Assembly: GCA_015680685.1 (NCBI GenBank)
Contig: MNCI01002616.1
Location: 130,378 to 194,377 of the forward strand
Direction: 5' to 3'
Origin: Gnetum montanum
Taxonomy: Eukaryota; Plantae; Gnetophyta
Length of the DNA: 64,000 nucleotides
Shown: piece by piece, positions 15,701 to 37,290 of the stretch
How positions within the stretch are numbered: the first letter of the stretch is position 1
How the letters are laid out: each line of letters begins with the position of its first letter
Notes under the pieces: generated by a model
The model's input: the letters and a program-made list of their open reading frames with translations, nothing else
Database searches by the model: none
What the model was told of the DNA's origin: nothing
Position numbers and translations under genes: made by a program

Positions 15701-16453
15701 CCATCCATATTGGTTGACAAAAACATGCCAACAAAGGAGAAAGCAATCCATGTGGTCATGCTTCTTTCTACACTAGAAGAACCATGGCCATCTCAATTAG
15801 CATTTTGTGAGGAGTCCATTAAAGATGATCCTGAAAAGGGTCGCACGACAACAACACCCATGTTCATCACGATTCAGGTCGGTCAACACAAGATCTGAAG
15901 AGTACATGTTGATGACGAGGTTGCTACAAATGTCATCCCATTTCCCATAGTGGACAAACTCGGTTTGGTGGATCAAATCAAACCCATGACAATGTCATGT
16001 TTGAAGTTGTTCAATGGAGCATGGGTGGTGGTAAAAGGCACTATCCACATTAACTTTGTTGCAGGGGATTAGTTTCCCACAAGTGTAACCTTCATTTTGG
16101 TAGAAGAGATGCCTGGGTTTAACATGATCTTGGGGAGGTTGTGGTTACCCCAACTTAGGGCTGTCTCTTCACCCATACATCAAAAAATTTACCTACCTTA
16201 TGCAGGTAGATAGGTGGTGATCTATGGCAACGAAGTAGCTACCCAGGCAATAAACAATGTTGACATGGAGCAAGGCTCAGAAGTAATATCCTCTAAGACT
16301 GAAGCATATGTCTTCACTGAAGCTACTTGTTTGGCAAATAAGCTAGCCCAAAACATTAGCTTAGAAAACAAAACTACATGGGTAGAATTACCTTGTCAAG
16401 TGATAGATAACGATGTAGAGGAATACCACAATAAAGCCCCTTGGCAAGAATAA
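12728..16453 (+). pseudogene. gag: gag-protease of element B (stops and frameshifts)
   Basis: Gag core ALYWYYALP...FKYNLKP, Cys/His box F(Y)DYHQLCGHDTDYC, protease RVHVDDE.ATN and FNMILGR.W. Confidence 0.9.
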
Positions 16454-16765: not shown

Positions 16766-17582
16766 AAACGAGATGCTCCTAACGAATTTAATTCATAAAA
16801 AAAGATAAACAATAAAACAAAAATAAATACAACATATAGGCCAAAATGAAATAAACCTCTTCATATTCAATTTTTTTCTTTCATTTAAAATATTAATTAA
16901 TAATCTTTTCAACATTTTTTGTGAAAATCCAAATAAAATTCCCAGCTGCTACGCTATGACCCTTTGCCCAGTCCATCTTCCCTTGCTTCATTACGCCCTA
17001 TGTTTTCATCTAGATTCTGTACCATAGGAAAAATGAAAGTCAGTTAAAGCTACAATAAAGACTCGAAGAAAATAAATTGTCACAATGCCAAAAGGTGACT
17101 GACCTGAGACGACCCCACGTCGATTTCGAGGGGTATCCGATCCAAGCCTACCGTGAGGCATTGAAAGATCTCCTCTTCAGTAATATCAGCCTAATTCCTA
17201 TCTCCCAGGTCAACGCTTGTTGCAACTTTCTCCTTTTCTATGGATGTCCATCTCAGTGGTCCTGGAGAAAAGGTGGCAATAGTGATCTCACCCATGGGAA
17301 AGGTCATTTCCCTTTCGGGAGATTCACTTACTGTCACTTGTTGCATAAACCTATCATAAGCCCCAGAAGCACCAATAATGTCAAGGAATACCTCGTAAGT
17401 ATGTAACTTGATAGAGGCATCCTAATATTGGTTACGGTAGGTGGCACGTTCTAGCTTATACATATGTTTGTGGTTTTTCTGTGCCTACCCCCACTTGTAA
17501 ATTTTTTCACTATAGTCCTTCTAGTCTTGGTTCTTCTAGGATAACAGGTCAATTTGCATGTGTTGTTCTATTATTTCATGAG

Positions 17583-19036
17583 TGTAACGACGGAAAACGT
17601 CGGCAGCTGGAAAATACCGAACAAATTCTGTGTACACAGTTCTAACCACGGATCCGTATGAGGGCTATGCTGGAAAAATGAATCCGCGGCACCCTGAACG
17701 GTCTTGTCGATCAGATAGGGACTTACTAATCAGTAAATCGATGAATGTCTCATGGAATGATCTGATTCGAGAAATCGCAAAACCAAGAAAAATGACGTAG
17801 ATGAATTGCAACGACGATAATGCTAAAAGCGATAAGAGAAGGCTAGCACAAGAGAAACATGTAGTTTCAAGATCTATGCTTTGACTTGGAAAAATGTATA
17901 TTTTGTATGCCACATTACACTAGGGAGACCCCGATTGCTTGATGTAAGGTAAACACAAAACAACAAGGAAACTGTCCAAACAGAAGTCCGATCTACCTTG
18001 AGGGCTAGAGCCAGGATGCAAGGAAGGTCAAGCTCTGACGCCTACCGATCAATTGTTTCTGACCAATAGAGTCTTCCCCAGCAGAACGATTACTCCTGCC
18101 ATCGGTACTCAAAGTTAACTGTGCTCTATTTCTACCGGAAGGTGATGCTGTCAACAATTGCCAAAGCACTGCTCTCTGTGTCTCTGCTTCAAAAGTGATA
18201 AGTGCTCCAGTGCTTAGAAAATGCCTTTGCTTTTTTGATTTGCCAACCCCTGTATCTTCGTCAACTGGGGTATTTATAGGCTGCAACATCTTGTGGAAGA
18301 GGCACAACCCTAATGATGCGTGTCCCAAATGTTTCGGGTACTATTGGTCTGACTGTTTTTGTGTAAGGCTTCATAATTACGCACAATACGCTCGTTTGCG
18401 TATTGTGCGTGTGAAGAAGAGGTGCACGTCAGGCACGTTTCAACTGCCTTTGGGTCATATTATGCTCATCACGCTGCATTGTGTGCACGAGCGTAACATA
18501 ATCATGGAAGCAATAGATTCAGGCTGTTTTACGCTTGCATACGCAGCTGCGCGTAATGAAGCGTAAACGATGTCTAGCTTAGCGACGCAATACATTATGA
18601 TATACTACGTTGCGTGATGAGTGTATGATGAGCAGTCACACTTTCTTAGACTTTGCCTTTGACTGTTTTGGAGCCCATTACGCTGACGTGCGTAACAGAG
18701 TGTAAACATGGCCTTGAACCAAAGCCTTAGCAAAATATACAAGAAGTTGTATATTACGCTGCTCAAGCTTCTCCCTATGCCAAAGTAACTAGGCTTTTGA
18801 TGCTGGAATAGGTTTAAAGAGAATAACACTAAGCGTAATTACGCTGTGTCACGTGATATAGCGTAAATAGAGAAAACATAGTAAGATTAGAAATCTGCGC
18901 AGGAAGTTGAAGACTTGATGCTACGCGCCTCTTGGTGTTGCTCTGGCTTATTCTTCCTTTTGGAATTCTGACATGTGCCCTTGCCTGAATTGCGAATCTT
19001 TGCCTGAGGCCGACTCATAATTTTCACGGTGTTTCA
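17583..19036 (-). repeat. 3' LTR of element A
   Basis: TG...CA termini, colinear with 33366-34798. Confidence 0.97.
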
Positions 19037-19050
19037 ATGGCCCCTCTTTA
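19037..19050 (-). promoter_or_regulatory. Polypurine tract of element A
   Basis: Minus strand reads AAAGAGGGGCCAT directly before TGAAACACC. Confidence 0.85.
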
Positions 19051-20134
19051 TTGACGGTTGGAGGGCTTACCCGAAAGACGTCGACAAAGAATACAAAACA
19101 CCGGATTGGTAGAAGCAAGAACAACGTCCATCCATGGCTACTCAGGCATTGCCCTGTCAAGATGAAAGAGCAAAGCTAGAGGAATGGGAGATAAAATGAC
19201 ATAAGGCAGGAAACAAGTTCGGGGAAGACATAACATAGGTCAGGATGGTAGGAGTATGGAATACGCTTACTGAACGCACATAAACGTATGCACATGTAAG
19301 TCAATAGGAATGCTTTCAAATGAGCATAACCCGTCAGTCTGAGATCTCTCTGTCACTGATTATAGCAGGAATGCTCGCAAAAGGAGCATGGCGCATCACT
19401 TCTGTGATATCTCTGCTAGTGGGAGTGCGGAAAATGGATACTTGCGTATGGGAAGCGGGTGGTGGGGATGAAAGGAACCAAGAGCTAAGGGTAGGATTGT
19501 GAGAGGTATAGGCATGCAGATCTAAGTGGTTGGGCAAACCTGAGCAGCCATCTCAAAACGCTATTTTTTTTCACCGCTCAAATGGATGCACCTTTGAACC
19601 ACATCCGCGAAGCAAGTAATCTACAACCACAGAAGAAAATAGAGGGCACGATTGCTCATGCGAACAAGAGGCGAGGTTGTTGAAACGAGCACCGTTTGAT
19701 GCAAGATAGAGCGATTGGACCATGAAGAAGGAGCTGTAGCATGAGGGCAGAACCGCCAATCCTGATGATTGGCCCAGCATATCTTCGCCAAAAGGCATCA
19801 GACACAGTGCAGCTAACTGGTTGTACAGGAAACCAGCTAGATGAATTTGTGAAGCCAGCATCTGATAGCGATGATCGGCGGAGGTCCCTGAGGCCGTTGT
19901 CGAGGAGGATTTCGTCAGGGCTCCGGCTGGCGGGACTAAACTCTCAGAGGTGCCACCACTGCAGTGGGCGCAGCGGTGGCATCTCTGAGGGATCAGTAAG
20001 ATGCCTCTCAGCTCATCCGAGGAATCAGTAAGATGCTGGTGGGGTGGCGACACTGGGACTGTCCCTGTATCCCACCTTGTTGTTTGTGCAACTGTAAAGA
20101 GATGATCATGCTTGCTTGATTTACATGGCAGCAG

Positions 20135-20640
20135 TCTGTAAGTCCCAGTTTTAAGTCCTGGTAGACTGTCGTTACTAGTTTTAAGTCTCAGCAGAACATG
20201 GTCCCAATTTAAAGTTTGGGAGGACCGAGAAGTGCTAGTTTTACGTCGTAGCGGATGGTGCCATGTATGATTTATGGTCTCAGCAAACCGTGCTGTGGAC
20301 GTCATTTTCGTGTCATGACCCAGGGACAGATCTATGTTGATTTTATGTCTTAGCAGATGGCTACTTACCTGTGCCAGTTTAGCATCGTGGCGGATGCGTG
20401 CAAATGGTGCCAGTTTTTCGTCTTGGCGGACCTGTACAACAATGCTAGTTTTACGTCGTAGCGGACGGTTGCAACTTGCCAGTTTAGCGTCATAGCAGAT
20501 GAATATTGCCAGTTTAGCATTGTGGCAGATGCGTGCAAGGAATGCCAGTTTTACGTCGTAGTAGACGATCAGTGCCAGTTTAACGTCGTAGCGGACGTTT
20601 AGTGCCAGTATAGCGTCGTAGCGGACGAGTATTGCCATAC
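20135..20640 (-). repeat. Post-integrase tandem array of A (~30-36 bp units, GTCCGCTACGACGTAAAACTGGCA)
   Basis: More than a dozen degenerate units with GCCAGTTT(T)A on the plus strand. Confidence 0.9.
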
Positions 20641-20664
20641 CTGCTGTTAACACCATAGATGCTG

Positions 20665-23600
20665 CTAAATGTAATACCGCTTCAAGTACACATGATTTAC
20701 AGGATTTGGTAATTCATTGTTGTTGACATCTACTAACTTGAATGCGCCGTTGCTATACACGTCGACCACCAAGAAAGGGCCTTCCCAGTTTGTAGAGAAC
20801 TTGCCTACTGGTTCATGCACAGCCTTGAGGACTAGATCTCCTTTCTTGATCGGGCGCTGTTGAAGGCTGTGATGATGCTTCTGTCTCTGTTTGTCTTGAT
20901 ACCTTTCAATCGTGTTAAGAGCCTGTATCCGCTTCTCTTCTACTGAATCCAGATTCGCGATTCGAGACTCGGTGTGTTGAGCCTCATTTATAACTGTGGA
21001 GAGGACCATCCTCAGAGAAGGAATTTGCAACTCGAGAGGCAGCACTGCTTCAGACCCGTAAACAAGGCTATAGGGCGTACTACCCGTAGTACGGTATGCC
21101 CATAGCACATAGAGGATCTGTTCGTGCCACCACGTTTTGTTGCCGTCGAGCATTTTCTTAAGCAGATTAATGATCACTTTATTCATTGCTTCAGCTTGAC
21201 CATTCGCTTGTAGGTAATAGGGAGAGGAAAAGGATTGTCTAATGCCTAGGTTGTCACAGAAAGATTTGGTTTCTGTGCTACTAAATTGTGGTCCATTATC
21301 GGTCACGATAGTCATCGGGAGACCAAATCTGGTTACTATATTGTCCAGGATAAAATGGAAAATCTACTGAGATGTGATCTTTCACAGGGGAACAGCCTCT
21401 ACCCACTTCGTAAAATACTCAGTAGCAGTAATAATGAAGCTATGACCAGTGGAAGACTTCGGCGTGATGGGGCCTATAATGTCTAGTCCCCATCGCTGAA
21501 ATGGCCATGTTATCTGCATTGTATGTAATTCTGTGGGTGACACATGTATGAGGTTAGCGTGATGCTGAAACATGTCACAAGTTTTAACCTTTGTCAGGCA
21601 ATCCCTTTCCATGCGCGGCCAGTAGTATCCTAAACGATGGATTTTTAGGGCCATAGCTCGTGGTGCTACATGTTCGCCGCATAGTCCCTCATGAACATCG
21701 CTGACTATATGCTGCGCTTGGTTTTTGTCAACGCAAGTAAGCAGCACGCCATCAAAGGAGTGTCTACAGAGAGTGCTGTCTCTGATGATGACATATTGCT
21801 TAGCCCGCTTACGGATTGCGTCTTTCTGTGCGCATGTCAATGTAGATGGTAGCTCGCCCTGTAAAAGATAAGTTTTAATGTCGTCGTACCATTCAGGCGT
21901 GATTTCCTCAAGAAGAGAGGAGATTTGTGTCATCTGAATGATAGGATCTGCGCAGTCTATAATCAATTCAGGATAGGTGTCCAAAAGATGTGCAGGCACG
22001 TTCAAAGCTAGTGTTGCCAGTGCATCGGCCAGTGTGTTATCCGTGCATCGATGGTCGCGAATCGTCTCAAAAGATCTTTAGTCGTATCGCAGTAGGGCTG
22101 CAAATGTACAGCCTTGCAGGTGTAGACTCCTGTGATCTGATTTATGACAAGCATCGAATCACCCCTAATTGCCAGGTGTTGAACATCGAGTTCACCGGCA
22201 GTTAGTAATCCCCTGAGGAGCCCCTCGTACTCTACCACATTGTTCGTACAAGGGAAGGTCAAGCGATAAGCATGCAGACACACATCCTAAGGCGATAGCA
22301 TGATAACAGTGGCAGCACTGCCACCTCTAGCGGTTGAAGCACCATCAAAGTACAACGTTGCTTCGGGGCCTGTCGAGATAGGGCTTAAACTATGTACATG
22401 TTCGTCAGGGAACTCTAGTTCTATGGTCACTTGATTGTTAATTGGTGACATTACTAACTGGTCAGCTATCGCTTGGCCTTTCATAGATGATTGGCCGACA
22501 TAGTGCAGATCGAATTCTGCCGTGATAGCCTTCCAGTGAGCTATTTTACTACTCTCGTATAAATTGTGCGTAATGGTCCTAAGAATGTTGTTTTTACAGA
22601 TGATGTTGACTTTGCTACGGAAAAGATAATGTCTACATTTTTTAAGCATAAAAATTAATTCTAGGCAATTACGCTCTATGTCGTTATACCTCATTTCGTA
22701 CGCACATAGGGCATGAATCAAGTAGTAGATGGGCACTTCCGACCCATCGTCCCTCCTTTGATAAAGTAATGCGGCTAACGCTACGTCCGACGTTGCGAGG
22801 TAAATGTAAAAAGGCAAGTCCCTTTGTGGGGGGAAAACTGTCGATAAATGTTGTAGTTCTTGTTTTAAACTATCAAACGCACATTGGTAATCATCGGTCC
22901 ATTCGAAATTAACCCCCTTTTTCAGCAAGTGTTGCATAGGGTGTAGCTTGTCGGTTAATCTCAAGATGAACTGGCATATAAACTGTAAGCGTCCCTGTAA
23001 CCCGCGTAATTGCTTGAGGTCTGTAGGAGGCGTGAGCTCAACAATGGCTTTGACTTTATCAGGGTAAACTTGTATGCCAGCTTTCGACACCACAAACCCC
23101 AGCATGCGTTCGATTTTGACTCCGTATACGCACTTCTTTGGGTTAAGCCGGAGCTCATATTTGAAACATCTTTTAAGGACTAACTCCAGGTCTCCTGAAT
23201 GATCCTCAAACTTTAAAGACTTAACTGCTATATCATCTACATAATCATTCAGCCTTCCTAAGAGGTAATTGCGGAAGATGTATGTCATGGCTCGTTGATA
23301 CGTTGCTCCGGCGTTCTTTAGAACAAAAGGCATCATAGTGTAGCAGAAGGTGCCCCAAGGTGTCATGAATGTTGTGGTCAGCTGATGTTCTGGGTTAATG
23401 CGAATCTGGTTATAACCCGAAAAACCATCCATAAAGGACAACAACGCATGCCTAGCTGTTGTGTCAACTAGTTGATCGATACTTGGAAGTGGGAAGTTAT
23501 CTTTGATCGTTGCCTTATTCAAATCCCGGAAGTTGATGCAGATGCATATGCTTCCAATCTTCTTTGGGACGACTACAATGTTAGACACCCAATTTGAGTA

Positions 23601-24122
23601 ATCGACTGCACGGATGAACCTAGCCTGATACAGTTTAGTGATTTCATCACGCACGGCTAGCGCGATTTCTGGCTTAATTTTGCGTGCCTTTTGCCTAACT
23701 GCCTTAACCTATGGGTCTAAGATGATGTTATGTTGGATTAGCCTGGGATCTAGTCCAGGCATATCCTCGTATGACCATGTGAAGACGGTAATGTTGTCTT
23801 GCAGGACCTATGTTATGGCATCGTGCGTTTTCTGGTCTAATAAAGAACTGACTTTAAGCGCTTTGGCCTCACCTCTATACGTAACGATAGAGACCTCACT
23901 GAGGGGGTCTTCGGTTATGTCTCCAGCCTCCAGATCTAGCATACGTGTTGACTATTCTAGCCACTTTGGGGATGTCTCCGACGCAGCTATGGTTACGGCT
24001 TCTAAAGAGGGGTTAGCATCTATCAACGTGGAGTCAAATTGTCTAACTATCTTCCCGTGTGGGCCTGTCAAAGTTAGGGGTGCTGAAACTGTTGCGTCCA
24101 TTTGCCGTCTGTCCTGCAAAAC
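20665..24122 (-). pseudogene. pol: pol of element A: RT - RNase H - archaeal-type RNase H - integrase
   Basis: RT motifs LSFMDGFSGYNQI, MPFVLKNAGATYQR and YVDD. RH LATSD..YYL. aRH LYFDGAS, TNNVVEYEGLL and GDSMLV. INT HEGLCGEH, WGLDIIG, TDNGPQF, NGQAE and NWEGPF. Confidence 0.97.
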
Positions 24123-24527
24123 CTTCAAGTGCGTAAATGATTAGGAGACAAGTGACGTGATGTCGCCGAACATGGAAGGCTAACTAAATTTTGAATATTG
24201 TAGACAAGCTGTAATCAATGCAACCCGATTACGAGGTGATAAGATGTGGTAGTTTAACATCATTTCGGACAGTGGCACGTGCAATATCAGCCGCATTAAT
24301 ATTTGGATTTTCAGGTTCCGTTTTAGGAAAGTCCTGCTGAAATCGGCTATCAAGTCGGTGATCCTCGCGTATAAGCAAGTAGTTTTTTTTTGATGAGGAC
24401 AGGTTGTTGGCTGTTGAGAATTTGAATTCGTGACTGTCGTTGAGAGAAGGAAGAGTAGAAAGTTAGAGCGTGTAATCTTGCGAAGATTTGCAAGTGTTAA
24501 GCTGTGAAAAAATCTAAAGCCTTTGCA

Positions 24528-27500
24528 ATGGCACCGAAGATCAAGAGGAAGAACGCAAAACTGGCCAAAATCGATGAAATGCATGCAACCCTGGATCGTG
24601 TTTCGCAGGCTCTGGTCGATGTTCATGACCCTATGCCTTTGAACCGGTAGGTCATTCTTACATGCTTATGCTTGTTTCTATGGCTACTTTTCGTGGTATA
24701 TTTTTGTTTACGTGAATGTGGATTTCAAATTGTGGACCTCGGGTTAATGCGAGGGTTGATGGGGTTGCGTCTACCGCCATTGTCAGGGATGAACCTTGCG
24801 TTATTGCAAGGGTTTGGGCGATTTTGGCCTGGATAGCTAAGTGTAGTTTATGAGTTTTCTATGTTAGTCATGCAAATGTAAATGTAGGTGTTAATGTATG
24901 CATTGGGTTTTTTGTACAGCGTTGTGCTAAAGCCTATTTTGATTGTGTTGGATATTGTCAGGGTTTTTTGTTGTGTAAACCCCATCGTCCCCAATGTCCC
25001 TCCCCCGCACACGCGGTTGCAAGGAAAGGCCATATGTTTTTGACAGGGTGCGCTGGAGTTTCTGCAATTCTTGCTGCGCAACTTCAGCGTCATTGTGTGG
25101 TTTGACCTATCTGGCGACGTCACCGGTGCTCTTTTAGAGCACCTGCTGGTGGGTTCTGCGTAAGGGATTCTGGCCTTTTTGATGGATCGGGCCATCGATA
25201 CGGGCCGTCCCGAGGACTGAGAGCTTAGCGGCCGGGGCTTGCAGAGCTTAAACTGGATCTAGGAAATGGCTCGGTTCAGTTGTTATCACGCATATAACAT
25301 GTTGTTCATGGCTCGCCATGTCTCGACCTATTTCCAGAACCCACAAGGCACGATGTACTACGCAGGCGGGTAAGCAAATTTTATTGACTATCTATTTTTC
25401 TATTTTGTTTTGTTGTATGTCTGTTATCGGTGTGAAATATAAGAGAAGCTTATGTGCAAAATGTAAAATAAGCCTATGTTGTATGGTACAGGTTCTTTAT
25501 TCAGGACAACAGGTTAGTTGGAGATGGGTATGTGTTATCATGGGCCGAAACAGCAATAATGGCGTTTACTACAACTAGCAACGTGTGCGCTGGTGTTATA
25601 GAGCAGATTGGCTTTGACATGCATAAATACCCCACCCGTTATGCTAGGGCTTTTGAGAATTGCCAGAGGCTCGGGTGGCTGCACGATGACTGGACTCTAG
25701 ATCTGCCCCTTACCGTTGAGGACGTGCAGAGGGAACTCCCGCCATTTCCCCTACCATTTGGCCCCAGTAAAGTTGTTGTATAGTTGGTTATTGCGTAATG
25801 TAGTTGTAAATTGTAAGCATTGCGTAACAGTGTTTTCATTTGACTTGTGTTTTACGTTGTTCAGTTAGGGAATCCCGGGAGATTACCCTTACGATTTCCG
25901 GCCGCGAGGTGAACGCCGTCCTCTTTCGCTACGGCGACATCAAGGACACACAGTGCTGGCTCGGCCACTCGACAACCCCAGTCGCGATGAGCTCCAAGAT
26001 CCGAGCAGCAAGGCTAATGCACCTATTTTTGGCTGTGACTCCTGATGTCCTCGCCAGTGAAATGCTAACCCTGGTCAACTCCTTCAACAAAAAGGTCGAG
26101 CGTTTCTGGATGCACGTACATAACGTGTGCGTAAGCTTTAACATCGATGCTTAGATCTTCGTGGACCTCTTTGGTGTCCCCTCAGACGGCCCTCCCGTAA
26201 GTGAGAAGGCGAAGAGGAGTGTTGCCTTCCAGAATTGGCTGAAGGAGTGGGTAAGGGTCCCGAAGAAGACTAAAGGGTTTCCCTGCGAAAGATTCGAGAT
26301 GGGTGTTGCCAAGACACTTTATCCCCTTTTCCGGGCCCGGAATTTCCCCAAAACTCTCTCGCAGGGGAAGTTCTTTTCTGTAGAACAGACCCGTATTATG
26401 CGAGAGGTTCTGGAGGAGGGGACCCAGTTCAATTAGACAAGCTATTTTGCCAAGGGACTGCGTAATGAGATGATCAAGCTTCGCCAAAAGCTTGAGTCCC
26501 ATTTCAACGTGCATTACTCCTTCTTCATAGCTTACCTTCGACGGTTTGCTGAGTTTCTGGTCATCCAAAGACATGGGGTCTGGGTGCAGCAAGACCGAGA
26601 CCAACTATCCAGACCTTGGATTGCCCACATCCTCAGCACTACCTGTGGGCAGGATCCACCAGAAGGGATCGGGGAGTCGCTGTCTATAATGACCAAGGGT
26701 TTGCCGGCGCCCCAAGTGTGAGGCCTCAACAGTGTAGGCGAGATAATGCCTACTTACACCAGTGACGCCTCGCGAGGGAAATGCCTGGCGAAAGAAATTG
26801 TAGAACCTGCAGCTCGGCGTAAGAGACTCCGTATAGCCGAGGCCCCTGAGGGTGATGCAGGCCAAACTATGGTGGCCAAAGTTCAGCGGAGTAAGCCTCC
26901 GCCTGGTAAGCGTGTAGAAATTGTATTACACAACGGTTGTTTGGATGTTTTGTAATGATATACTAAGGTGCTATGACATGATAAGTAAAAATTACGAAAG
27001 AACTAACCCCTGAGACGGGAGTAGTAACACTAAGTCGTAGGGAGAGGGCCTCAATTTTAGAAGAAGAGGCCCAGCTGTTAGCGTGAGCCGTGTATAGGCT
27101 CTGGTGCATGAGGAGGCCCCAGCTACTGGAACCAGCAATGCACAAACTCTAGTGCGTGAAAGAGAAAGGGCGGCTGAAGATGTCGGTGAAGTTGCCACTG
27201 TCACCGGTAGAGGTAATGGTGTGTTAGCGTGTTTGCAAGATTTTTGTAAATAGATGAGGTTTCTAACTGGATTACGCTACAGGAGAAGAGGAGGTGTCCA
27301 CGTCTGTCGCTGTGAGCAGAGCGTGGAGAGACTTTCCAGAAAAATTTGCCTTCATGGAAGGGGTTGTCAATGACATGATTGAGCGCCTGGAGCACGTCGA
27401 ACCTGGAGCTGGTACGTTATGGTCATAGTCAGTTTGTGATATTACACAGTGGTAATATGTCATCAACGTTTGATGGTTGTTTCTATTAGGAGCTTGCCTC

Positions 27501-28663
27501 TGATGGGATCCCACGGAGCCCATTGATCTGGACATAGTGGAGCCACCATCCAATGAAGCAGCCGTGCCACGTCACATTTATGAGGAACTGTGTAAATGTG
27601 CATTATGCTCGACACGCTCCTTATGGGAAGGGCGTAAATGAAAATCTATGGAAGAGGTTGCAGAAGTCAGAACAGAGGGTTGAGTCTCTGACCAAAGAGG
27701 ACGGAGACCTAAAATCACGATGTGACTTCCTACAAGCGAGGGTGACAGGGGACGAAGACTGGAATACCGCTATTGTCGACCACTCCCAGTACTGGACAGC
27801 CATCAAAAACAGCGTGCAGACCAGTCAGGCATTAGTCGAACAACAGATGCAGATAGAACTCCTAGCCTAGAAAAGGTGGGACTGGAGGGATTATTGTGTA
27901 AGCATGCAAGAGTGGGGGCAGAAGGATAAGGACCACAAGCACTTGTACAAGCGGGAGAGTATTGCTTATTGGAAACTCTACCGCGATCTTGCCGTCAGGG
28001 CCCAGTCCTTGGAAGTCTTCCTGGATGTCATCGGAGCTTTCGAAGCTTTCAAGAAGTTTGAGGAGCAGGTGATTGTAAGTGCGTCTCCCGAAAGGGCGAT
28101 GAATCTCCCTGGGGGTCAGGCTACAATCCCTACTTTCTTCCCAGACCCACCCCGCGAGAGCAGCGTGGAGAAAGGGAAAGTGAAGGCCGGATCTGCCTTG
28201 GGAGGGGATGTATGGCCAGATCTAATGGAGGAAGAGATTATGGAACGCCTGTGGGCTAGCCTGGACAAGCTCCCCTTTGCTGCGGAAGCAGGGTCGTCAC
28301 AAGTAAGTTTACGCGTGACTTAGTTTGCGTTTCTGATTATGATGTTAAGTCTTGTGTAGCTAATGTGCTTACTGTGTTTAGGTACTAGCCGAGGATAGGG
28401 AAGATGAACAAGCTGAGGAGTTAGCAGAGGGAGCGATGGAAGCAGAGGAAGAAGCAGAGGAAGAGGCAGAAGAAGGGACAGAAGAATGCAACGATGAAGA
28501 GCATCCTTCCATGGAGCCGACGCCAGAACGAGGACCTCACAAAGAGGACATTCTTCATGAAAGAATCATTCCTAGAAACGACGGCCCATTTGAGGACGAT
28601 CCATTAGCGTTGGATCTGGACTTAAGAGATACCGGTGATAGTGGTAGTAGAGGAAATGCGTAA
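24528..28663 (+). pseudogene. Antisense ~8-exon cargo gene of A: FCP1/NIF HAD-like domain, plant-transposon-protein-like domain, coiled coil and acidic tail
   Basis: Exons at 24528-24646, 24920-25369, 25492-~25767, 25865-26905, ~26969-27206, 27283-27411, 27490-28302 and 28382-28663. GT-AG introns with compatible phases where checked. Most in-frame stops are explained by C->T/G->A decay, plus about 2 frameshifts. Confidence 0.8.
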
Positions 28664-28861
28664 TTATAATTTACGCATAGTTTTATTGATGTTGAGTTGA
28701 GTGCAATATCATTTTACGAATGATTGAAAAGACGTGTTATAAAACCTGGTGGATGCGTTAAATGTCAGTTACACATTTTTTATTCTTTTTGCGTTTTTCC
28801 TGTAGAGTGTGAGTGTAATCGTTGAAAATTTCACCTAAGTGAAAATGATAGAGTGTAATTG

Positions 28862-29106
28862 TTAGTTTAAGGCCATCGCGGGCTGTCACATGATTCTGCG
28901 TAACCTAGCGACTAGTTTAAGGCCATCGCGGGCCATTGTGTAATATGCATAAATGATAGTGGTGTAAAATTCTATGTCACTAGTTTAAGGTCATTGCGGG
29001 CCATCATATGGTTCTGCGTAAACTAGCGACTAGTTTAGGGTCGTTGCGGGTAATCAAGCGTATAGTATACAGTTCTGGCAACTACTTTAAGGCCGTTGCG
29101 GGCCAT
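28862..29106 (-). repeat. Post-protease array of A (GCCCGCGATGGCCTTAAACTAG units)
   Basis: About 5 spaced copies of TAGTTTAAGGCCATCGCGGGC on the plus strand. Confidence 0.85.
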
Positions 29107-29333
29107 AGCGTAATATAGCAAGCGTAAATGATACCGGTACAGAATTTTGCGTAATTATACTAAAGTGATCAGGAAACGTGCATATCATGCGTACAAAAAA
29201 GATAACAGTGTAAAGATAAATGACAAGCGTAAGAACTGAAAACGAAAGTAACGTGACAATGCATGAAATAAAACTACTAAGTCAGCACCATGATAACTCA
29301 CAAAGACAGGATAATGCACGTAAGGACCATCGT

Positions 29334-32300
29334 TCAACCATTGATACGTAATTGTTTCTTGAAGGCCTTCACGTTGAGCGTTGCGTAAGGGTGAGGAGAC
29401 TTATTATTTGACTCCTCCACGCTGCCATCTAGAAATGGTAGGGCGGCCCAAGCTAGACCGTCATTATTACTATCAACTTGTTGAGGGGTTTCAAGACGGA
29501 TCTGGTCATCAGTCGTTTCTATCTCTGAACCCCGTTCTTCTTCAATGTTATTGACGGTCCTGGGGGTGATTTCGTCACCGCGTATCACGACCTCCCCTCT
29601 GGCATAGGGAAGATGTATCTCTTGGTGTATCGGTAACGAAACTGCCCTCAGCTGAGCTAACCACGACCTCCCCAAGATCAAGTTGAACCCTGGCATCTCC
29701 TCGATGACTAAGAAAGTGGCCTCTGTTGGGAATTGATCTCCCGCCACAAACTCAATACACACCATCCCTTTAACTTGAACCCATGCCCCATTGAATGATT
29801 TTATGCAGGCCTTCATCGTGGGTGTGATCTGGTCGACCAGACCCAACCTATCCACGATGGAATAGGGAATGAAGTTGGTAGTCGCGCCATCGTCTACGTG
29901 CACTCTTTGGATCCGATATTGACCGACTCGGATAGTGATAAACATAGGTTCAGTGGTCACCTGACCTTTCTCAGGATCATCTTTGATAGACTCGTCGTGG
30001 AAGGTCAGCGAGGAAGGCGTAGGTTGCTCAGCTTCGGAAGGAAACATGACAGCATGTATCGCTTCCTCCTTTGCTGGCAAGCTTTCATCCACTAATATGG
30101 ATGTCAGCATGCGAACCATAGCCTCACGGTGTTCTCGAGACGTCATAAGTAGGTCGTAAAGGCTCAACGTTGTGTTTTTTTGTTTGAGAGCCTATTTAAC
30201 TTGCGTAAATGCGTCGAGGAGGTCCTTCTCTTGGCTAGGTTGCTTTTCTCCCCTGTCCTCTTCCATTCAGCCCAAGAGATGGATCTCCCGAGGTGGAACG
30301 GTGTTAGTTAGAGGGTTGCTCTTTTTCTTGCCAAGAGAAGGCGGTTGCGTTTCCGCACCTTTATCCTGCCCCTGAGACACAGGTGAAGGCACAAAAGCCA
30401 GGGGCCTAGGCTTAGGGAAGTCGAGCGTAGAGTGGTCTTTCGTTGCGTTAACTAATGTGTCCTCTCCCTTTTTTTTGGGAGGTGAGGGTTGATGCTTTTG
30501 GTTGGAGGTCTACCCCTACGTGAGAAGAGTAGCCTGTGGTTTTGGCGCCCTAATAATGAAGGGTGCCTTGGGTGTGGGTGCGGACGAGGCCGCGGCTTGG
30601 CTGTTGCTGCATGGCTGAAAGTGCATTTGAGAAGGTGCCCATATAATGAAGGGCAGCCTCGAGACCACCTGGCTGCTGATGAAATGGTTGGCCCCCTTTG
30701 TGAGTTGGCAGGGACACACAAAACAAAGTGTTGTTTTGGTGGTTTCCTCCTCTCACTGTCCGTACTTACCACAGTGATTGTATAAGGATCATCGTTTACG
30801 TTCAGCGGGTCCTTATACATGTGCAATGTTTGGTTTTCTAGACGTGTCGGGTTGTTGCTGTCTAACTTGAGTGAACCATCGTCCAGCATACGTTGAATGT
30901 CATCTTTCAACGCCCAACAGTAATCCATATCATGACCACACAGCTGGTGGTAGTCATAGAAATGGTCGAGCCTGAAAGATCTTGGAACTGGTGGTTCGTT
31001 AGGTAAGGCTAGAGAAGGGTTCTTCAACAGTTCACAATGAAGTCTGTGATGCTTCAAAGCCTCCTTGGACACCTTCTTAGGTTGAATGTGCTCTTCTCCT
31101 AACAGCTGTTTCAGTAGTTCAGAATGCTTTATAGGTAATGCCGTGTACTTTGAGCGATCCTTACGCTCAAAGTTTGGCTTAGGCTAGGGGGCCCTTCAGG
31201 GGTAGTTGTATTTTGGCTGGTGCCAGCACCAGCCATGGTTTCAAGAGGCACCGTGGCTACCTTTTTGTTCTTCTTCTTTGCACTCTCAGTCATTGCAGCT
31301 ACTGTCGTTGTCGCTGCTTTACCTTTGTCTTTGTTTTTGTTATGTGCATTCCTATAGGCGACATACGCCGGGTCTTTGCTGGCCTCCGCAGCATCTTGGA
31401 TGCTTCTCACTTAAGCGAAGGCCTGATGTAAAGAATTGGGAGAAAGGTAATACAGCTTTGACTTAATGAAGTCATTGACTGCTCCCTTGAATATAGCCAA
31501 CATATGTGAGTCCACGATCGGTTCACGGATCTCATTCAAGGTAGCATTCCAACGCTGTATGAACTTTTGGACGAGCTCAAGTGGGTCTTGTTTCACCCCC
31601 ATCAGCTGATCCAATGTGACTTCTGGTTTCAAGTTGTATTTGAAGCGGGTCACAAATTGGGTCAGCAACTCTTCCAGGGTTGAGATGGAAGAGCATGGGA
31701 GGGATCGGTACCAATCCAAAGCTTTCCCTGTTAAAGACATCACAAAGACTCGGATGATAGTGTGTGGCCACTGTTGCAACAACAAGGACTCAGATCTAAA
31801 CATGACCAAGTGCACATTGGGATCTCCCTCCCCATTATACTTGGTGAAATGAGGCAGAGACATCCCTGGCGGCAACGACAGCATAGAAACCGCTGGATTG
31901 ATCGAATCATCCTGATAAAAGTCCATGATTTGAACGGTGTCAGAATCAGCGGCTTTGAGACATCAAACCTCTTTGATAAGAGTCTGTATCAGCTGGAAGG
32001 CTTGGTCCAGGCCTGTTGGCGGGGGTGTTTGTGTGGAAGGCATAAGAGGTTGGACCAGGAGGGCGGCGCCAGGAAATGGGAACGAAGGAAGAGGTTGACT
32101 GGCTGCTTGTGGGGCGGGGATCCCAACAGGCCGGGGAGCCTGTGAAGACCACCACCCGCTGGCTTGCACAGAGGGGTTAGCCGCTGCTTGTTGTGCGAGA
32201 TAAGGATGAGGATACTGCGATACCCCCTATGGAACATACGTTGCGGGTGCAACTGGGGGTTGCACACCGTACACCACAGACTGGGTCTGTTGCGCCACCG

Positions 32301-33120
32301 GGTTAGCCCACTGACCTGCGGCAGGCTGTTGGGCGTAAGTCTGTGGCTGAACGGTTGCGGTAATCTGTTGGGTCGGAGGGGGCAGAAGTGACAAGGTTTG
32401 CGCCGGGCGCGTTGCGGGTATGTTGTGGGATTGTATCTAAGGAATGAAGTGGGGCGCAATGGTCGCCGGGACCACCACTGGGATGCTAAGTACTCGCGGT
32501 GACAAGACCACCCCCACGTTATTGTGGGGCATTTGTACTTGCAGCCCAGACGGTTGCGCAGTGGCCTGTGGCATGGCAGGGAAATGCATTTGCGCGGTCA
32601 TGGCTGGGTCAAGAGGTGCGGCTTCTCCATTGAAAGGAAACAGGGGATTTATATACGTTTGGGGGCTCAGAGTATGGAACGAATGTTCCGACTGGGCTAC
32701 CAATTCATCCTCTTCTTCTTCCCCATGCTGGGGCTCAACCACAGCTTGTGAAGCCTGGCCTTTGGCCATGACCAACTGTGTGATGAGTTGATGTTGGCGT
32801 TCAGTCAAGGGGATGATGTCGTAAGCTATTGGCTTGAAATCATGGCCCCATCGGTGGACCACCTCAAAGTTTTGCTTCGCTTAGAGTTCGGCTCGGCTGA
32901 GAGCCAGGTTCGCCTGGATCTTAACACATATAAAGTTATATTCTTTAGGGGTTATGACCGTGAAGATGGGCTCTTTTCCCTGAAGTCACAATGATTGGTG
33001 CAATGGTCCCTGAGATCCTGTTGCGCCTGGAACTAGTCGGGTGACCGCGACAGGGTTCACAGATGTGGCACCCAAATCGGTAGGGACCATGGCAGTTGTG
33101 GTTGTATAAAAGGAATCCAT
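29334..33120 (-). pseudogene. gag: gag-protease of element A
   Basis: ATG at 33120 is in frame with 32862. Pro/Gln-rich N-terminal region, gag core 31411-31926 (KYNGEGDP..H, GKALDWY), DYHQLCGHDMDYC box, protease RVHVDDGATTN and FNLILGRSWL. Ends in a stop ~5.2 kb before RT. Confidence 0.95.
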
Positions 33121-33341
33121 TGGGTAATGAGATTAATGGTAAGTGGTAATCGGATCTAAGAAATGGTCAGCAACAAAAGCACAAATAGGCTTTCTACCCT
33201 GTAGGATTTCAAAGAAATCGTCCTTGCGACCGATCTATACCACGCGATTGGCTGTAAACTTCCCTAGAGGTATTACGTCTATGGTTTAGGGTATGGATCA
33301 CTACCAGGGCTACCTGAAATATTTGGATCGAAGCCTGAAGG

Positions 33342-33359
33342 CCCTTCCTTCTAGCGCCA
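33342..33359 (-). promoter_or_regulatory. PBS of element A, complementary to the 3' end of tRNA-Asn(GUU)
   Basis: Minus strand TGGCGCTAGAAGGAAGGG. The plant cytosolic tRNA-Asn 3' end is recalled as ...CCCTCCTTCTAGCG-CCA. Confidence 0.8.
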
Positions 33360-33365
33360 GAAAAC

Positions 33366-34798
33366 TATAACGATGGAAAACGTCGGCCGCTGGAAAATAC
33401 CAAACAAATTCCGTGTACACAGTTCTAACCACGGATCCGTGTGAGGGCTATGCTGGAAAAATGAATCCGCGGTGTCCTGAACGGTCTTGTCGATCAGACA
33501 GGGACTTACTAATCAGTAAATCGCTGAATGTCTCGTGGAATGATCTGATTCAAGAAATTGCAAAACGAGGAAAAATGACGTAGATGAATTGCAATGACGA
33601 TAATGCTAAACGCGATCAGAGAAGGCTAGCACAAGAGAAACACGTAGTTTCAAGATCTACGCTTTGACTTGCAAAAATGTATATTTTGTATGCCACATTA
33701 CACTAGGGAGACCCCGATTGCTTGATGTAAGGTAAACACAAAACAACAAGGAAACTATCCAAACAGAAGTCTGATCTACCTCGAGGGCTAGAGCCGGGAT
33801 GCAAGGAAGGTCAAGCTATGAAGCCTACTGATCAACTGTTTCTGACCAATAAAGTCTTCCCCAGCAAAACCATTACTCCTTCCGCGGGTACTCAAAGTGA
33901 ACTATGCTCTATTTCAACAATTGCCAAAGCACTGATCTCTATGTCTCTACTCCAAAAGTGATAAGTGCTCTAGTGCTCAGAAAAATGCCTTTGCTTTTTT
34001 GATTTTCCAACCCCTGTATCTTCGTCAACTGGGGTATTTATAGGCTGTAACGTCTTGTGGAAGAGGCGCAACCCTGATGATGCGTCCTGAATGTTTCGGG
34101 TACTGTTGGTCTGACTGTTTTTGTGTAAGGCTTCATGATTACGCACAATACGTGAATGAGCGTATTGTGCGTATGAAGAAGAGGTGCACGTCGGGCACAT
34201 TTCAACTGCCTTTGGGTCATATTATGCTCATCATGCTGCGTTGTGTGCACGAGCGTAACATAATTGTGGAAGTAATAGATTCAGGCTATTTTACGCTTGC
34301 ATACGTAGCCGCGCGTAATGAAGCGTAAACGATGTCTAGCTTGGCGACGCAATACGCTATGATACGCTACGTTGCGTGATGAGCGTATGATGAGTAGTCG
34401 CACTTTCTTAGACTTTTCCTTTGACTGTTTTGGAGCCCATTACGCTGCCGTGTGTAACAGAGAGTAAACATGACCTTGAACCAAAGCCTTAGCAAAATAT
34501 ACAAGAAGTTGTATATTACACTGCTCAAGCTTCTCCCTATGCCAAAGTAACTAGCCTTCTGATGCCGGACTAGGTTTAAACAGAATCACGCTAAGCGTAA
34601 TTACGCTGGGTCACGTGATATTGCGTAAACTGAGAAAACATAGTAAGATTAGAAATCTGCACAGGAAGTTGAAGACTTGATGCTACACGCCTCTTGGTGT
34701 TGCTCTGGCTTATTCTTCCTTTTGGAATTCTGACATGCGCCCTTGCCTGAATTGCGAATCTTTGCCTGAGGCCAACTCGCAATTTTCACGGTGTTTCA
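33366..34798 (-). repeat. 5' LTR of element A
   Basis: Colinear with 17583-19036, with a ~20-bp deletion near 33914 and the terminal CA decayed to TA. Confidence 0.97.
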
Positions 34799-35495
34799 AT
34801 GAGTGGCCTCATTTTTTAGCCACATGGCCATCCAATACCTTACATAGTCAGTGATAGCCATGAGCCAACTGCCATTGTTGGTATCTCAGGCCAATAGGAA
34901 TTCATTCCGGGATTGGAGATCTCCCACATCAGTAGTCAAGTTGGCCTTCTCCTTCTCAAGCCTCTGTACCTATTTCTATAGGTCTTCATTCATGGGCATG
35001 CATTCCCACAAGGAGTGTGCCGAGTACAGTGCACATTAGCTTGCTTCATCGTATATATGCGACGAGGTACTTTGGTCACCTCTGGTGGAAATTCAGGCAT
35101 GGCATCGACCTCAACTACTTGTTTAGGGTCCCACTTGAGAAGAGAGGCTTCTAACCACATATACAAAGGCATTATTCATAGTGGCATAGTGAAGCAACAA
35201 CATTTTAAAGAGTCTAGTGTAGCAATTTTGACTTACCCACTTTTGGGGTCGATCTGCCTTAGACGGTCAATCATGTCATCGACCACCCCTTCCATGAAAG
35301 TAAATTTATTAGGGGTTTCGGTCCACAGTTGTAGGTGGATAGAGGAAGGGTTGGAGGTATCAATAGTGGTGTTAGTTGTATAACGAAACGTGTTGGCCAT
35401 AATGGAGGAAAATCATGATAAAGCTGATGAACAACATAAATGGCAGTGTAAAGCTCCTACCCAGCAAACTCTCAGGGGTGATAGCACGGGGGGTG

Positions 35496-37290
35496 TGAAA
35501 CACCAAAAAGTTTCAGGCCATCCTTGCTTCATCAAGTCCTTGGAACCCAGGTGGCATCACATCACTTCAGAAAGAAGTGAACGCTTCGAGCTCAGACTAT
35601 CTAGTTCAGACAATTTTCTACTTTAGGTGTCGGTAGGCTCAACAGACCCTCTTGCCTGCCTGAGTAGTTCATCCAGTTGATAACCTATTCAGAAGTGATG
35701 CAGAGAGTTGTTGATGATACTCAGGATGAATGAAACAGTTTGGAAAATTTTTTAAATCAAGAAGTTTGCTACACTATGCTATGCTATGTAGCATAGCAGG
35801 CTTTAGAAGATGGTTGCAAAACAAAGTTTCTAAGTCAAAAGGTTTGCCATGCTACGCTATGCCATGTAGCATAGCAAGCTTCAAAAGGGCGACCACAGAA
35901 TAGAGTGCTACGCTACGACATGCATCATAGCACAGAGTAGCAAAAGCCCACCATGTAGCTCCTTCACCTGACTCCAAGTCCTTTGGCGATGACTCCTTCC
36001 ACAAGGAAGCAGCAAACATAGCAAAAAAATAGTAGGCCATGTCGGTTGCTATGCTACAATACGCTATGTACTGTAGCATAGCATAGCAACTCTACAAGGA
36101 GAATGAAAGGCATTTGCAAAGGTAGGATCAACAAGTTTGCAAGTTTCGTAGTGCAAAAGGAAAATTTTGCACATTGTCAGCATTTTAGCAAAAATGCCAA
36201 AAGAAATCAGGAATGCTTCATAGGCTTCCGAACATGTGCAGCATGATGCAATGCAAGTTGTTGTTTCAAACTAGTGGCTACACTATGCTACACTGCATAG
36301 CGTAGCATGACGTAACAAGTCATCATGCTATGCCTACACACTATGCAACAAAGCACAGTTCAGTGTAGCAGATAGTTATGCCACATCAATGCACCTCACC
36401 TAATTGCACCATTGGCATGCATCTCCAAGCTCTGACGATGAAATTACAGCATGGTAGGCTCATAATTACATCATGGTAGGCTCATCCAATAGACACGCAT
36501 GACCAACAGTCATGCACGTCCATGTAGTATAGACAATTCAACACAGGCCCAAGACACGTGGCATCCAAGCCAAATCTATCGCATGCCCTTGGCCCTATAA
36601 ATTCCATAAAGAGCGATGCTCAAAGGGTCCAGTTTGGAATCAAAACAAAAAAACAAAAAAGGAGGGACTTTTGGTAAGTCAGTTAGCTGGTTAGTCAATT
36701 GGCTGGCTGGCAAGCAAAAAGTTAGCATTGTACTCTTGCACCTTGTAAACACCTTGTTTAGCATTGTAAACTCTTTGTTTGGCACTGTAAGTAATTGGCA
36801 CTCTCCCTTGGCATTTTGTTCCACTCTTTCTGGCTACGCTCACAGCACTCAGCATTGTTGACTCCCAAGTCCACGTTTAAGGGTACAATTGTCTTACTCT
36901 GGACGTCTTGGTTACCTTTGGGATCTCTATGCTTCCCAATGTCATGCAACAAATTGTATCCACCTCAACACGGTGAACTCATGTTCCTGAAGTGGTGCAT
37001 TTTTCTAATTGCAAATTACTTTTTTTTCTTGTTTTTCATTGCATTTTACATTATTTTTTGTTCCTTTTGCATAAAATTATCATTTTATGTTAAAAGTATC
37101 ATTTTCAAATTATCCGTTTATGAAAGGCTATATTAATGTTGACTAAGTCCATATCTAATCTACTAGACCTTTTAGGATGCCCCATCTCCTTTTTATCCAG
37201 CACGACCCTCTCGCGAATTTGGGGTTAAGACTATCCAGTGACTGATGACTTGTCAATGTTTTCCAGCCGCCGACATTTTTAGTCGCTAGA
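35496..37290 (+). repeat. 5' LTR of element C
   Basis: TGAAACACC start, colinear with 52501-54327, TATA at ~36595. Confidence 0.93.

Follow-up and report, generated by a model that had tools for sequence, protein, structure and literature searches.

The window, a stretch of 64,000 nucleotides from Gnetum montanum, contains a complete LTR retrotransposon (copy A), recognizable parts of further elements (copies B and C and element D) and a detached fragment (copy E). Copy A is flanked on both sides by the 5-bp target duplication ATGAG. It is inserted into element D, where it splits the C-terminal exon of D's own antisense gene; the tblastn matches to that exon stop and resume at the borders of copy A, within the target duplication. 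Where the antisense gene sits and which way it runs are shared by A, B and C, and in part by D. It occupies a spacer between gag-protease and reverse transcriptase (RT) that is 5-6 kb long in A, C and D, and it is flanked on the opposite strand by Pfam domains for gag, protease, RT, RNase H, an aRNH-type RVT_3 and integrase. The features of the host elements are as follows.

17583-34798, minus strand: copy A, complete LTR retrotransposon, Ty3/gypsy and Tat/Ogre-like, 17.2 kb long
17583-19036 and 33366-34798, minus strand: LTRs of copy A, 91.5% identical, with TG..CA ends
31414-31962, minus strand: copy A gag (Pfam)
29337-30191, minus strand: copy A protease (Pfam)
22290-23708, minus strand: copy A RT and RNase H (Pfam)
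20668-22077, minus strand: copy A integrase (Pfam)
40579-41457, plus strand: copy C protease
47619-49025, plus strand: copy C RT
58974-60380, plus strand: copy B RT
13845-14373, plus strand: element D gag
15617-16441, plus strand: element D protease
17167-17583, minus strand: C-terminal exon of the antisense gene of element D, its other half at 34802-35056 (tblastn)

The elements are called Ogre-like on the basis of domain order and split ORFs. As in Ogre (Tat lineage), gag-protease and RT-RH-INT are in separate frames with a non-coding gap between them, an aRNH-type domain follows the RNase H, and the elements are large and make a 5-bp target duplication. One criterion for Ogre/Tat elements is an additional RNase H of archaeal type, placed after the first and before the integrase (PMC6317226). 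Copy C has it, with RT_RNaseH and then RVT_3 in one frame (48576-49262) upstream of the integrase. The background described for Ogre/Tat also includes a spliced intron between gag-protease and RT (PMC6317226, PMC4408406), and the Ogre gap at this place is reported to average 274 bp (Neumann et al. 2019, PMC6317226). The elements in the window differ in that their gap of 5-6 kb is about 20 times that average and carries the antisense gene. The spacer may be an enlarged Ogre pol intron; a conserved block containing AG precedes the RT frame. In copy A only a short stretch, with a sense frame in it, separates integrase from the 3' LTR. Between 113,439 and 133,285 contigs per run matched copies C and B in the DNA of four runs, so this is a highly repeated family.

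The antisense gene appears from its reading frames and splice signals to be a spliced multi-exon gene, running against the retrotransposon between protease and RT. Its second exon encodes a domain resembling the NIF/FCP1 family. The exon was called cargo in an earlier note on this DNA; it does lie inside an element, but the word takes on a different meaning for a gene antisense to a Ty3/gypsy element in its protease-RT spacer. The parts of the gene that could be located are the following.

24528-24646, plus strand: copy A exon 1, 119 nt, ATG start (MAPK...), GT donor, conserved in tblastx
24920-25369, plus strand: copy A exon 2 (NIF-like), 450 nt, four in-frame stops
25492-25766, plus strand: copy A exon 3, 275 nt bounded by AG and GT, frame open, assigned to no family
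25865-26905, plus strand: copy A exon 4, 1041 nt, three stops up to the donor, with a conserved domain of ~280 aa
27267-28323, plus strand: further coding blocks of copy A, the C-terminal region among them, with one frameshift and a stop codon at 28321-28323
42168-46394, minus strand: copy C antisense gene, between protease and RT
46276-46394, minus strand: copy C exon 1, 119 nt
45363-45812, minus strand: copy C exon 2 (NIF-like), 450 nt, two stops, the best-preserved copy
45006-45280, minus strand: copy C exon 3, 275 nt
43853, minus strand: end of copy C exon 4
42168-43040, minus strand: copy C C-terminal region
54852-57745, minus strand: copy B antisense gene, exons 1-4, upstream of RT
57627-57745, minus strand: copy B exon 1, 119 nt
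56347-56796, minus strand: copy B exon 2 (NIF-like), 450 nt, seven stops
1981-2433, plus strand: copy E exon 2 (NIF-like), 453 nt, three stops, donor mutated to AT

Searching the window by tblastn with each copy of exon 2 returned exactly these four and no fifth. Translation of the four intervals bore out the coordinates, the lengths (450, 450, 450 and 453 nt) and the peptides quoted in the earlier note. A polypyrimidine tract and AG acceptor precede exon 2 in all four copies, and a GT donor follows it in three (A, C and B), with AT in E. The exon begins with one base of a split codon and ends with two, so both flanking introns are phase 2, as had been claimed. Exon 1 is 119 nt with ATG and GT in all three copies that have it (A, B and C), exon 3 is 275 nt with AG and GT in both A and C, and the exon 1/2 and 2/3 junctions are in frame in A and C. 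Copy E is an orphan; neighboring exons and pol domains were searched for near it and none were found. None of the four copies in the window is intact, since all have in-frame stops within exon 2. All four are decayed copies of the antisense gene of a large plant LTR retrotransposon.

RNA reads matched copy A in four runs (110-871 reads), mostly at 90-95% likeness, with a depth mostly at or below 1 in the three oligo-dT runs. In these four runs no read joined the splice sites predicted for either the antisense or the sense RNA, at a depth too thin to count either way.

The assignment of exon 2 to the NIF family is carried by profile searches and a predicted fold. Copy C matches Pfam NIF (PF03031) with E 1.3e-6 and 28.7 bits, above the curated cut-off of 21.8. 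Copy E falls below it (E 0.0028, 17.8 bits) and copies A and B individually have no match, so C is the only one of the four to pass alone. A profile made from the four copies together found 76 matches with E ≤ 1e-3 among 1.84 billion representatives, the best at 2.2e-11, and the proteins recovered were NIF only. The 20 database homologues in alignment A2 all match Pfam NIF (best 2.4e-21). In BLASTP, copy C aligns with the top profile match at E 2e-8 across motifs I to IV. A homologue search with the copy C exon against longer database proteins gave no matches, the profile had no matches in the PDB at E ≤ 10 by sequence, and of 597 pattern matches in metagenome contigs none were confirmed.

The structure was modeled from the copy C sequence. 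AlphaFold2 gave a model of the exon 2 domain with pLDDT 89.9 and pTM 0.84, which contains a HAD Rossmann-like core with a NIF-type fold. The model is not independent of the sequence match, because the alignment underlying it is mostly of NIF proteins. Foldseek found 23 matches to it in the PDB at E ≤ 1e-3, the best being SCP2 (2q5e, E 3.3e-5, TM 0.64), with SCP1 and SCP3 also at the top. Below the SCPs came TIM50, CTDNEP1 and Fcp1, with UBLCP1 weaker. The earlier note had proposed an FCP1/SCP/NIF-type HAD domain, to be checked against Pfam NIF and by structural comparison with SCP1, FCP1 and UBLCP1. The proposal holds on both counts: through copy C in the first case, and with matches to all three proteins in the second, UBLCP1 more weakly. 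It had also suggested that the next exon (25492 to about 25767) completes the fold, and this did not hold up. Exon 3 has no detectable similarity to NIF (BLASTP E 2.6, hhalign probability 0.2%), so the NIF-like domain, with no similarity to a NIF C-terminal part in the following exon, may be truncated or remodeled.

Searches with the remaining exons found no relatives. When the spacers of A, C and B were translated in all three frames of the antisense strand and searched against Pfam, along with single exons at E ≤ 1, the only results were NIF and a chance-level match to DivIC. The exon 4 domain has no Pfam match, and no homologues were found with the copy A exon among proteins of near lengths or with the alignment among longer ones (E ≤ 1). 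An AlphaFold model of it from three sequences was unusable (pLDDT 33.6), and the open C-terminal frame scored at best 0.86 against the ESM Atlas, under the useful range. Among the exons of the antisense gene that were searched, relatives outside the elements were found for exon 2 only. As a separate matter, an origin of exon 4 and the C-terminus from a PMD-coiled-coil protein, by analogy with the Tat extra ORFs described in PMC4408406, was considered and is supported by no test. The plant mobile domain PF10536, which an extra ORF carries in the Ogre/Tat lineage, was found in none of the frames scanned in the elements.

The catalytic residues of the family are replaced. Motif I reads D-I-V-R in A, E-I-V-G in C, K-I-M-G in B and E-L-V-D in E, so that DxDx(T/V) occurs in none of the four, and the residue two after the nucleophile position is Val or Met throughout. 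The motif IV pair reads AR, AH, AY and RH, with no acidic residue in any copy. Translation and alignment thus agree with the earlier note on the loss of both motifs in all four copies. What is kept is the motif II Ser in three copies (C, B and E; Phe in A) and a basic residue in motif III in all four (Lys in C and B, Arg in A and E), and there is a conserved His beside the former motif IV. The chemistry of HAD enzymes requires an Asp nucleophile and the acidic Mg2+ ligands of motif IV. Since these residues have been replaced, we predict that the exon 2 domain serves for binding and has no catalytic activity.

It could be supposed that the domain is still a NIF-type hydrolase with a non-canonical site, using Glu or Asp as nucleophile and His or Arg in place of metal ligation. 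The nucleophile position is Asp in A and Glu in C and E, the motif II, motif III and His residues just described are conserved, and the DxNG subfamily from which the domain would descend is itself non-canonical. However, B has Lys at the nucleophile position, every copy has Val or Met two residues further on, and the acidic pair that the chemistry depends on is gone from all four. We consider continued catalysis very improbable.

The domain resembles SCP1-3, FCP1 and CTDNEP1 in its Pfam profile match, in the predicted fold (TM ~0.6-0.68) and in having kept the Ser of motif II and the Lys/Arg of motif III, and differs from them in lacking DxDx(T/V) and an acidic motif IV and in being encoded by a retrotransposon. 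By sequence, these are not the nearest relatives. The nearest are NIF proteins of a DxNG(L/V)L subfamily found in eukaryotes, with Asn in place of the second Asp of motif I; the best matches of the profile built from the four copies, at E 2.2e-11 to 1e-3, belong to it. Among the 76 matches, motif I is DxN in 57, DxD in 8 and other in 2, with 9 missed by the pattern; a DD pair was found by a simple pattern in 48. Named relatives include a Helianthus 'putative FCP1 domain, HAD superfamily protein' and hypothetical proteins of Sphagnum. The pattern held in common is LxVLDxNGxL ... RPxxxEFLxFxxxxFxVxxWS ... LKxLxxxW ... NTLxxDDS..K...NP. In the DxNG proteins the first Asp and the acidic DD are still in place, which is not so in the element copies. 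The comparison with canonical enzymes in the earlier note therefore stands as to the NIF family and fails as to the nearest relatives, which are DxNG proteins rather than DxDxT enzymes. Since those relatives are already DxN, some of the catalytic loss is probably older than any capture.

Outside exon 2 the antisense gene shows no similarity to the DxNG proteins, and nothing below E 0.05 was found when its other exons were compared with 98 NIF proteins. A quick maximum likelihood tree of 85 rows puts the four copies in one clade (SH-aLRT 100, branch length 1.82), so on the tree they appear to share one origin. The clade adjoins unnamed short proteins (support 89) outside the land-plant group, a placement in which joining of long branches is possible. 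The earlier note had a host domain being captured and then kept as a pseudophosphatase. The keeping is borne out by the evidence for purifying selection given below, but not the capture from the host, the clade being long-branched and outside the land-plant group.

The selection evidence comes from comparing the copies frame by frame. In the NIF frame of exon 2, pN is 0.21-0.31 and pS 0.71-0.90, for a pN/pS of 0.29-0.36, though with synonymous sites saturated dN/dS is bounded by these figures rather than measured. The ratio is 0.44-0.53 in the mirror frame and 0.83-1.28 in the remaining four. Elsewhere in the antisense gene the exons have pN/pS of 0.41-0.57, with exon 3 spanning that same range in its frame (0.41-0.57), and the downstream and C-terminal blocks of copy A have 0.43. 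In tblastx between A and C, the downstream blocks score 219 bits in the frame of the antisense gene versus 103 in the mirror frame, and other blocks score 204 versus 134 and 162 versus 75. The antisense-gene frame has the top score in every conserved block. Since the low pN/pS is specific to the NIF frame, it indicates that a dead domain was under purifying selection while the subfamilies diverged, consistent with the pseudophosphatase of the earlier note. All copies in the window have decayed since that period.

The same numbers bear on whether the exon is neutral cargo, a fragment captured once and without function, whose open-looking frames reflect recent common origin. Captured gene fragments are described as common in plant LTR retrotransposons (PMC7264820), and every copy here has stops. 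But the copies are old, with pS saturated against a low pN in one frame only, and the exon lengths of 119, 450 and 275 nt, the ATG and the splice sites have been kept across subfamilies that are just 65-70% alike in DNA. The stops themselves occupy 13 alignment columns, each with a sense codon in at least one other copy, as expected for decay after insertion. We regard neutral cargo as improbable.

Extra genes are common in plant LTR retrotransposons, and their origin is given as unknown because they resemble nothing outside the elements (Vicient and Casacuberta, PMC7264820). This leaves some room for the view that a separate gene or mobile element landed in the ancestral protease-RT spacer and has been hitch-hiking there, selected for its own or the host's benefit. 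The gene has its own ATG and introns, and its outside relatives are confined to exon 2. Against this, its placement and direction do not vary among A, B, C and D, and its surroundings showed neither terminal repeats nor a transposase belonging to another element. It is also copied only with the element, so that selection on it must act through propagation of the element. An independent passenger is unlikely.

The reading we favor is that exon 2 belongs to an antisense accessory gene in the spacer of a Tat/Ogre-like element, and that its dead NIF/FCP1-fold HAD domain is a predicted non-catalytic binding module; we consider this likely. The product would be a putative protein of ~950 aa, carrying the NIF-like domain, a middle domain and a C-terminal region that is possibly coiled-coil. 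The introns of the gene would not be lost on retrotransposition, because it is the sense strand that serves as genomic RNA. The dead domain may hold a ligand, possibly phosphorylated, that is normally bound by host NIF proteins, and this binding might benefit expression of the element or its escape from silencing. TIM50 is a NIF-fold domain that serves binding and not catalysis, and by analogy it may be the best precedent for such a role. The Foldseek search matched it twice (4qqf, E 3.0e-4; 3qle, E 1.2e-3), but it is a host protein of the mitochondrial presequence translocase and has no closeness to the element domain at the sequence level.

A more specific version can be put forward only tentatively, and we think it rather doubtful. 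It holds that the pol intron of an abundant Ogre-like lineage houses an intron-bearing antisense gene, whose dead CTD-phosphatase-type domain holds a phosphorylated host factor and thereby steers transcription of the element or blunts its silencing. The Ser and the Lys/Arg that contact phosphate would have been kept for holding that factor, which might for example be the tail of RNA polymerase II or a protein that partners the DxNG proteins of the host.

Antisense extra ORFs with the Transposase_28 domain are described in Retand, Grande and RIRE2 of the Tat lineage (PMC11963269, PMC7264820). Like the gene in the Tat/Ogre-like elements of the window, these are antisense accessory genes, and in those accounts they are kept in most copies of the family. 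They are described as uninterrupted ORFs between pol and the 3' LTR, with TRP28 or no known domain, and that is where frequent antisense extra genes are placed (PMC7264820). The gene analyzed here is likewise antisense, as the aORF-3R type requires, but it is located between protease and RT, has introns, and encodes a NIF-like domain with cellular relatives. It stands apart from the described cases by that location, by its introns and by the clear cellular NIF relatives of one exon; also distinctive is a phosphatase fold kept by selection after its chemistry was lost. No published description of such a gene was found in the open-access literature. If the more specific version above is right, no antisense accessory gene known earlier from a plant retrotransposon would combine a domain traceable to cellular proteins with a biochemical role open to testing. 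The NIF-like domain gives a concrete handle on the ligands of an accessory protein through binding assays and pull-downs. As far as the account of Neumann et al. goes, large surveys left the protease-RT gap unscanned, and the present case suggests that antisense genes of several exons go unnoticed within the introns of retrotransposons.

The NIF-like exon of these retrotransposons encodes a dead domain of the NIF fold (Pfam PF03031, FCP1/SCP-type HAD phosphatases), which forms exon 2 of a predicted spliced antisense gene opposite gag-pol, was inherited with the element and was under constraint. The window is repetitive DNA of plant-like character (31-50% GC), occupied by divergent copies of a single type of Ty3/gypsy LTR retrotransposon. 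Since 113,439-133,285 DNA contigs in each of four runs match the stretch from element C to element B, the family is highly repeated. Domains were mapped by Pfam scans over long reading frames.

Features of the window
1981-2433, plus: NIF-like exon, copy E
13845-14373, plus: gag of element D
15617-16441, plus: protease of element D
17167-17583 and 34802-35056: halves of the last antisense-gene exon of D, interrupted precisely where A inserted
17578-17582 and 34799-34803: 5-bp duplication around A
17583-19036 and 33366-34798: LTRs of A, 91.5% identical
19.5-32 kb, minus: gag, aspartic protease, RT, RNase H and integrase (Pfam)
24920-25369, plus: NIF-like exon, copy A
45363-45812, minus: NIF-like exon, copy C
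47.5-49.3 kb, plus: RT, RNase H and archaeal-type RNase H (RVT_3) (Pfam)
56347-56796, minus: NIF-like exon, copy B

Element A is complete, with TG..CA LTR ends and a 5 bp target duplication, and is a nested insertion that landed within the last antisense-gene exon of element D. The order RNase H, archaeal RNase H, integrase distinguishes Ogre and Retand, two Tat clades of angiosperms (PMC6317226). An extra gag-like stretch at 6153-6698 (plus strand), 52% identical to gag of A, lies outside the mapped elements A-E. Two 1.7 kb stretches are 81.6% alike, one located after element A (35496-37199) and the other at the expected place of the antisense C-terminal exons of B (52501-54236); this is probably another repeat inserted at both sites.

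In A, B and C, protease and RT are 5-6 kb apart, and the NIF-like exon lies in this gap, on the strand opposite gag-pol. More blocks of protein-level conservation among the copies lie on that strand, and each has its top tblastx score in the antisense-gene orientation. The gene model was predicted from conserved blocks, splice sites and frame.

Predicted antisense gene
Exon 1: 119 nt, with ATG (MAPK...) and GT donor, in all of A, B and C
Exon 2: 450 nt, NIF-like
Exon 3: 275 nt in A and C
Exon 4: 1041 nt in A
Beyond exon 4: further coding blocks of A, ending at 28323

All predicted exon junctions of A are in frame. Translation of the four exon 2 intervals (450 nt in three copies, 453 nt in E) reproduced the peptides quoted in the earlier note, and its phase-2 introns on either side were found as claimed, with a pyrimidine tract and AG upstream in 4/4 copies and a donor GT downstream in three (AT in E). 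Copy E is an orphan fragment with no recognisable neighbours, and tblastn within the window found no fifth copy. The suggestion that exon 3 may complete the fold gained no support: this exon has no detectable resemblance to NIF domains in their C-terminal portion. Exon 4 and the C-terminal region matched no Pfam family, no protein in large collections and none of the host NIF proteins. A block within intron 1 (24756-24824 in A, 46027-46095 in C) has protein-like conservation, 52% over 23 codons, and is perhaps an alternative exon, perhaps a regulatory element.

Profile, relatives and predicted fold agree that exon 2 is a NIF domain. Copy C matches Pfam NIF at E 1.3e-6 (28.7 bits, cut-off 21.8) and copy E alone scores E 0.0028, below that cut-off; A and B searched singly have no match. 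A four-copy profile found 76 matches at E<=1e-3 among 1.84 billion representative proteins (top E 2.2e-11). Among the named cluster members are Sphagnum hypothetical proteins and, from Helianthus and other Asteraceae, proteins annotated 'putative FCP1 domain, HAD superfamily'. The alignment of copies with relatives spans all four HAD motifs, and 20/20 of the relatives aligned match Pfam NIF. An AlphaFold2 model of copy C was built from this alignment (pLDDT 89.9); as most of the aligned sequences are NIF proteins, model and sequence match are not independent evidence. The model has 23 PDB matches at E<=1e-3, best to SCP2, SCP1, SCP3, TIM50, CTDNEP1 and Fcp1, with UBLCP1 weaker.

The catalytic pattern of motif I is gone, as had been proposed (D-I-V in A, E-I-V in C, K-I-M in B, E-L-V in E), and the acidic pair of motif IV is replaced in every copy (AR, AH, AY, RH). 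The motif II Ser is retained in 3/4 copies and the motif III basic residue in all four. The claimed loss holds for the nucleophile (except in A) and the DD pair, but probably not for the second Asp of motif I: by a simple pattern, 57/76 relatives have Asn two residues past the nucleophile and 8/76 the canonical DxD, so that Asp was probably never present in the lineage of the copies. Measured against these relatives, the copies have lost the Asn, the DD pair and, in all but A, the nucleophile. Four host proteins from Asteraceae (P0002, P0003, P0006, P0008) belong to the DxNG family, which has Asn at that position, and contain a tandem pair of NIF-like domains. The second of the pair is degenerate (motif I DIGG or EMDG; motif IV DT or EN); dead NIF domains therefore occur in cellular genes of this family too.

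Since the four copies form one clade and none has an acidic motif IV, catalytic loss is most likely older than their divergence. Between the subfamilies, DNA identity is only 63-70%, and that where they can be aligned. The NIF frame has pN 0.21-0.31 and pS 0.71-0.90 (saturated), a ratio of 0.29-0.36, against 0.44-0.53 in the mirror frame and 0.83-1.28 in the remaining frames; other antisense-gene exons are similar (0.41-0.57). The frame was most likely under constraint after catalytic loss, and this succession, loss before divergence and then constraint, is the core argument that the domain was kept as a pseudo-enzyme, as the earlier note held. In-frame stops in exon 2 (A 4, C 2, B 7, E 3) occupy 13 alignment columns, each with a sense codon in another copy, as would be expected if the copies decayed once inserted. 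The same stop codon is shared by the diverged copies A, B and E at exon 2 column 115, and by A, C and B at exon 4 column 188; the simple reading is parallel decay at a mutation-prone codon, and a conserved in-frame stop could also be the cause.

Capture from the host had been inferred for the domain. The tree unites the copies in a single clade (SH-aLRT 100) but does not place it within land-plant sequences; its neighbours are unnamed short proteins. Given that position and the long branch, host capture is likely but unproven.

According to PMC7264820, PMC11963269 and PMC4408406, known antisense extra ORFs of the Tat lineage occupy the stretch from pol to the 3' LTR and contain Transposase_28, PMD or nothing recognisable. 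The present gene differs in its place in the protease-RT gap, its multiple exons and its NIF-like domain, and no description of such a gene was found in the open-access literature. The gap would be the counterpart of the Ogre intron, where extra DNA would leave the polyprotein intact; it is 5-6 kb here versus an average of 274 bp in Ogre, where some of the transcripts have it spliced out (PMC6317226 and PMC4408406). With sense RNA as the retrotransposition template, antisense introns would never be spliced out of the copies, and the gene would keep its intron structure.

The phosphate-contacting Ser and Lys/Arg are present while nucleophile, acid and metal ligands are absent, so the domain would hold a ligand rather than hydrolyse it. 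TIM50 employs the same fold for binding, and the proposed role may be analogous. Its purpose, with low confidence, would most likely be the element's own expression or escape from silencing.

The border of the spacer towards RT, upstream of antisense exon 1 (23310-24471), stands out in RNA run X15: 26 molecules share a start at 23561 on one strand, and depth on the opposite strand reaches its maximum for the element in the bin that follows. This may reflect PCR duplicates or the start of a transcript. On the sense strand, A, B and C share a conserved block immediately before the RT frame (24000-24130 in A, minus; 47250-47330 in C; 58640-58720 in B). It contains two AG dinucleotides and may supply the acceptor of a sense intron across the whole antisense gene.
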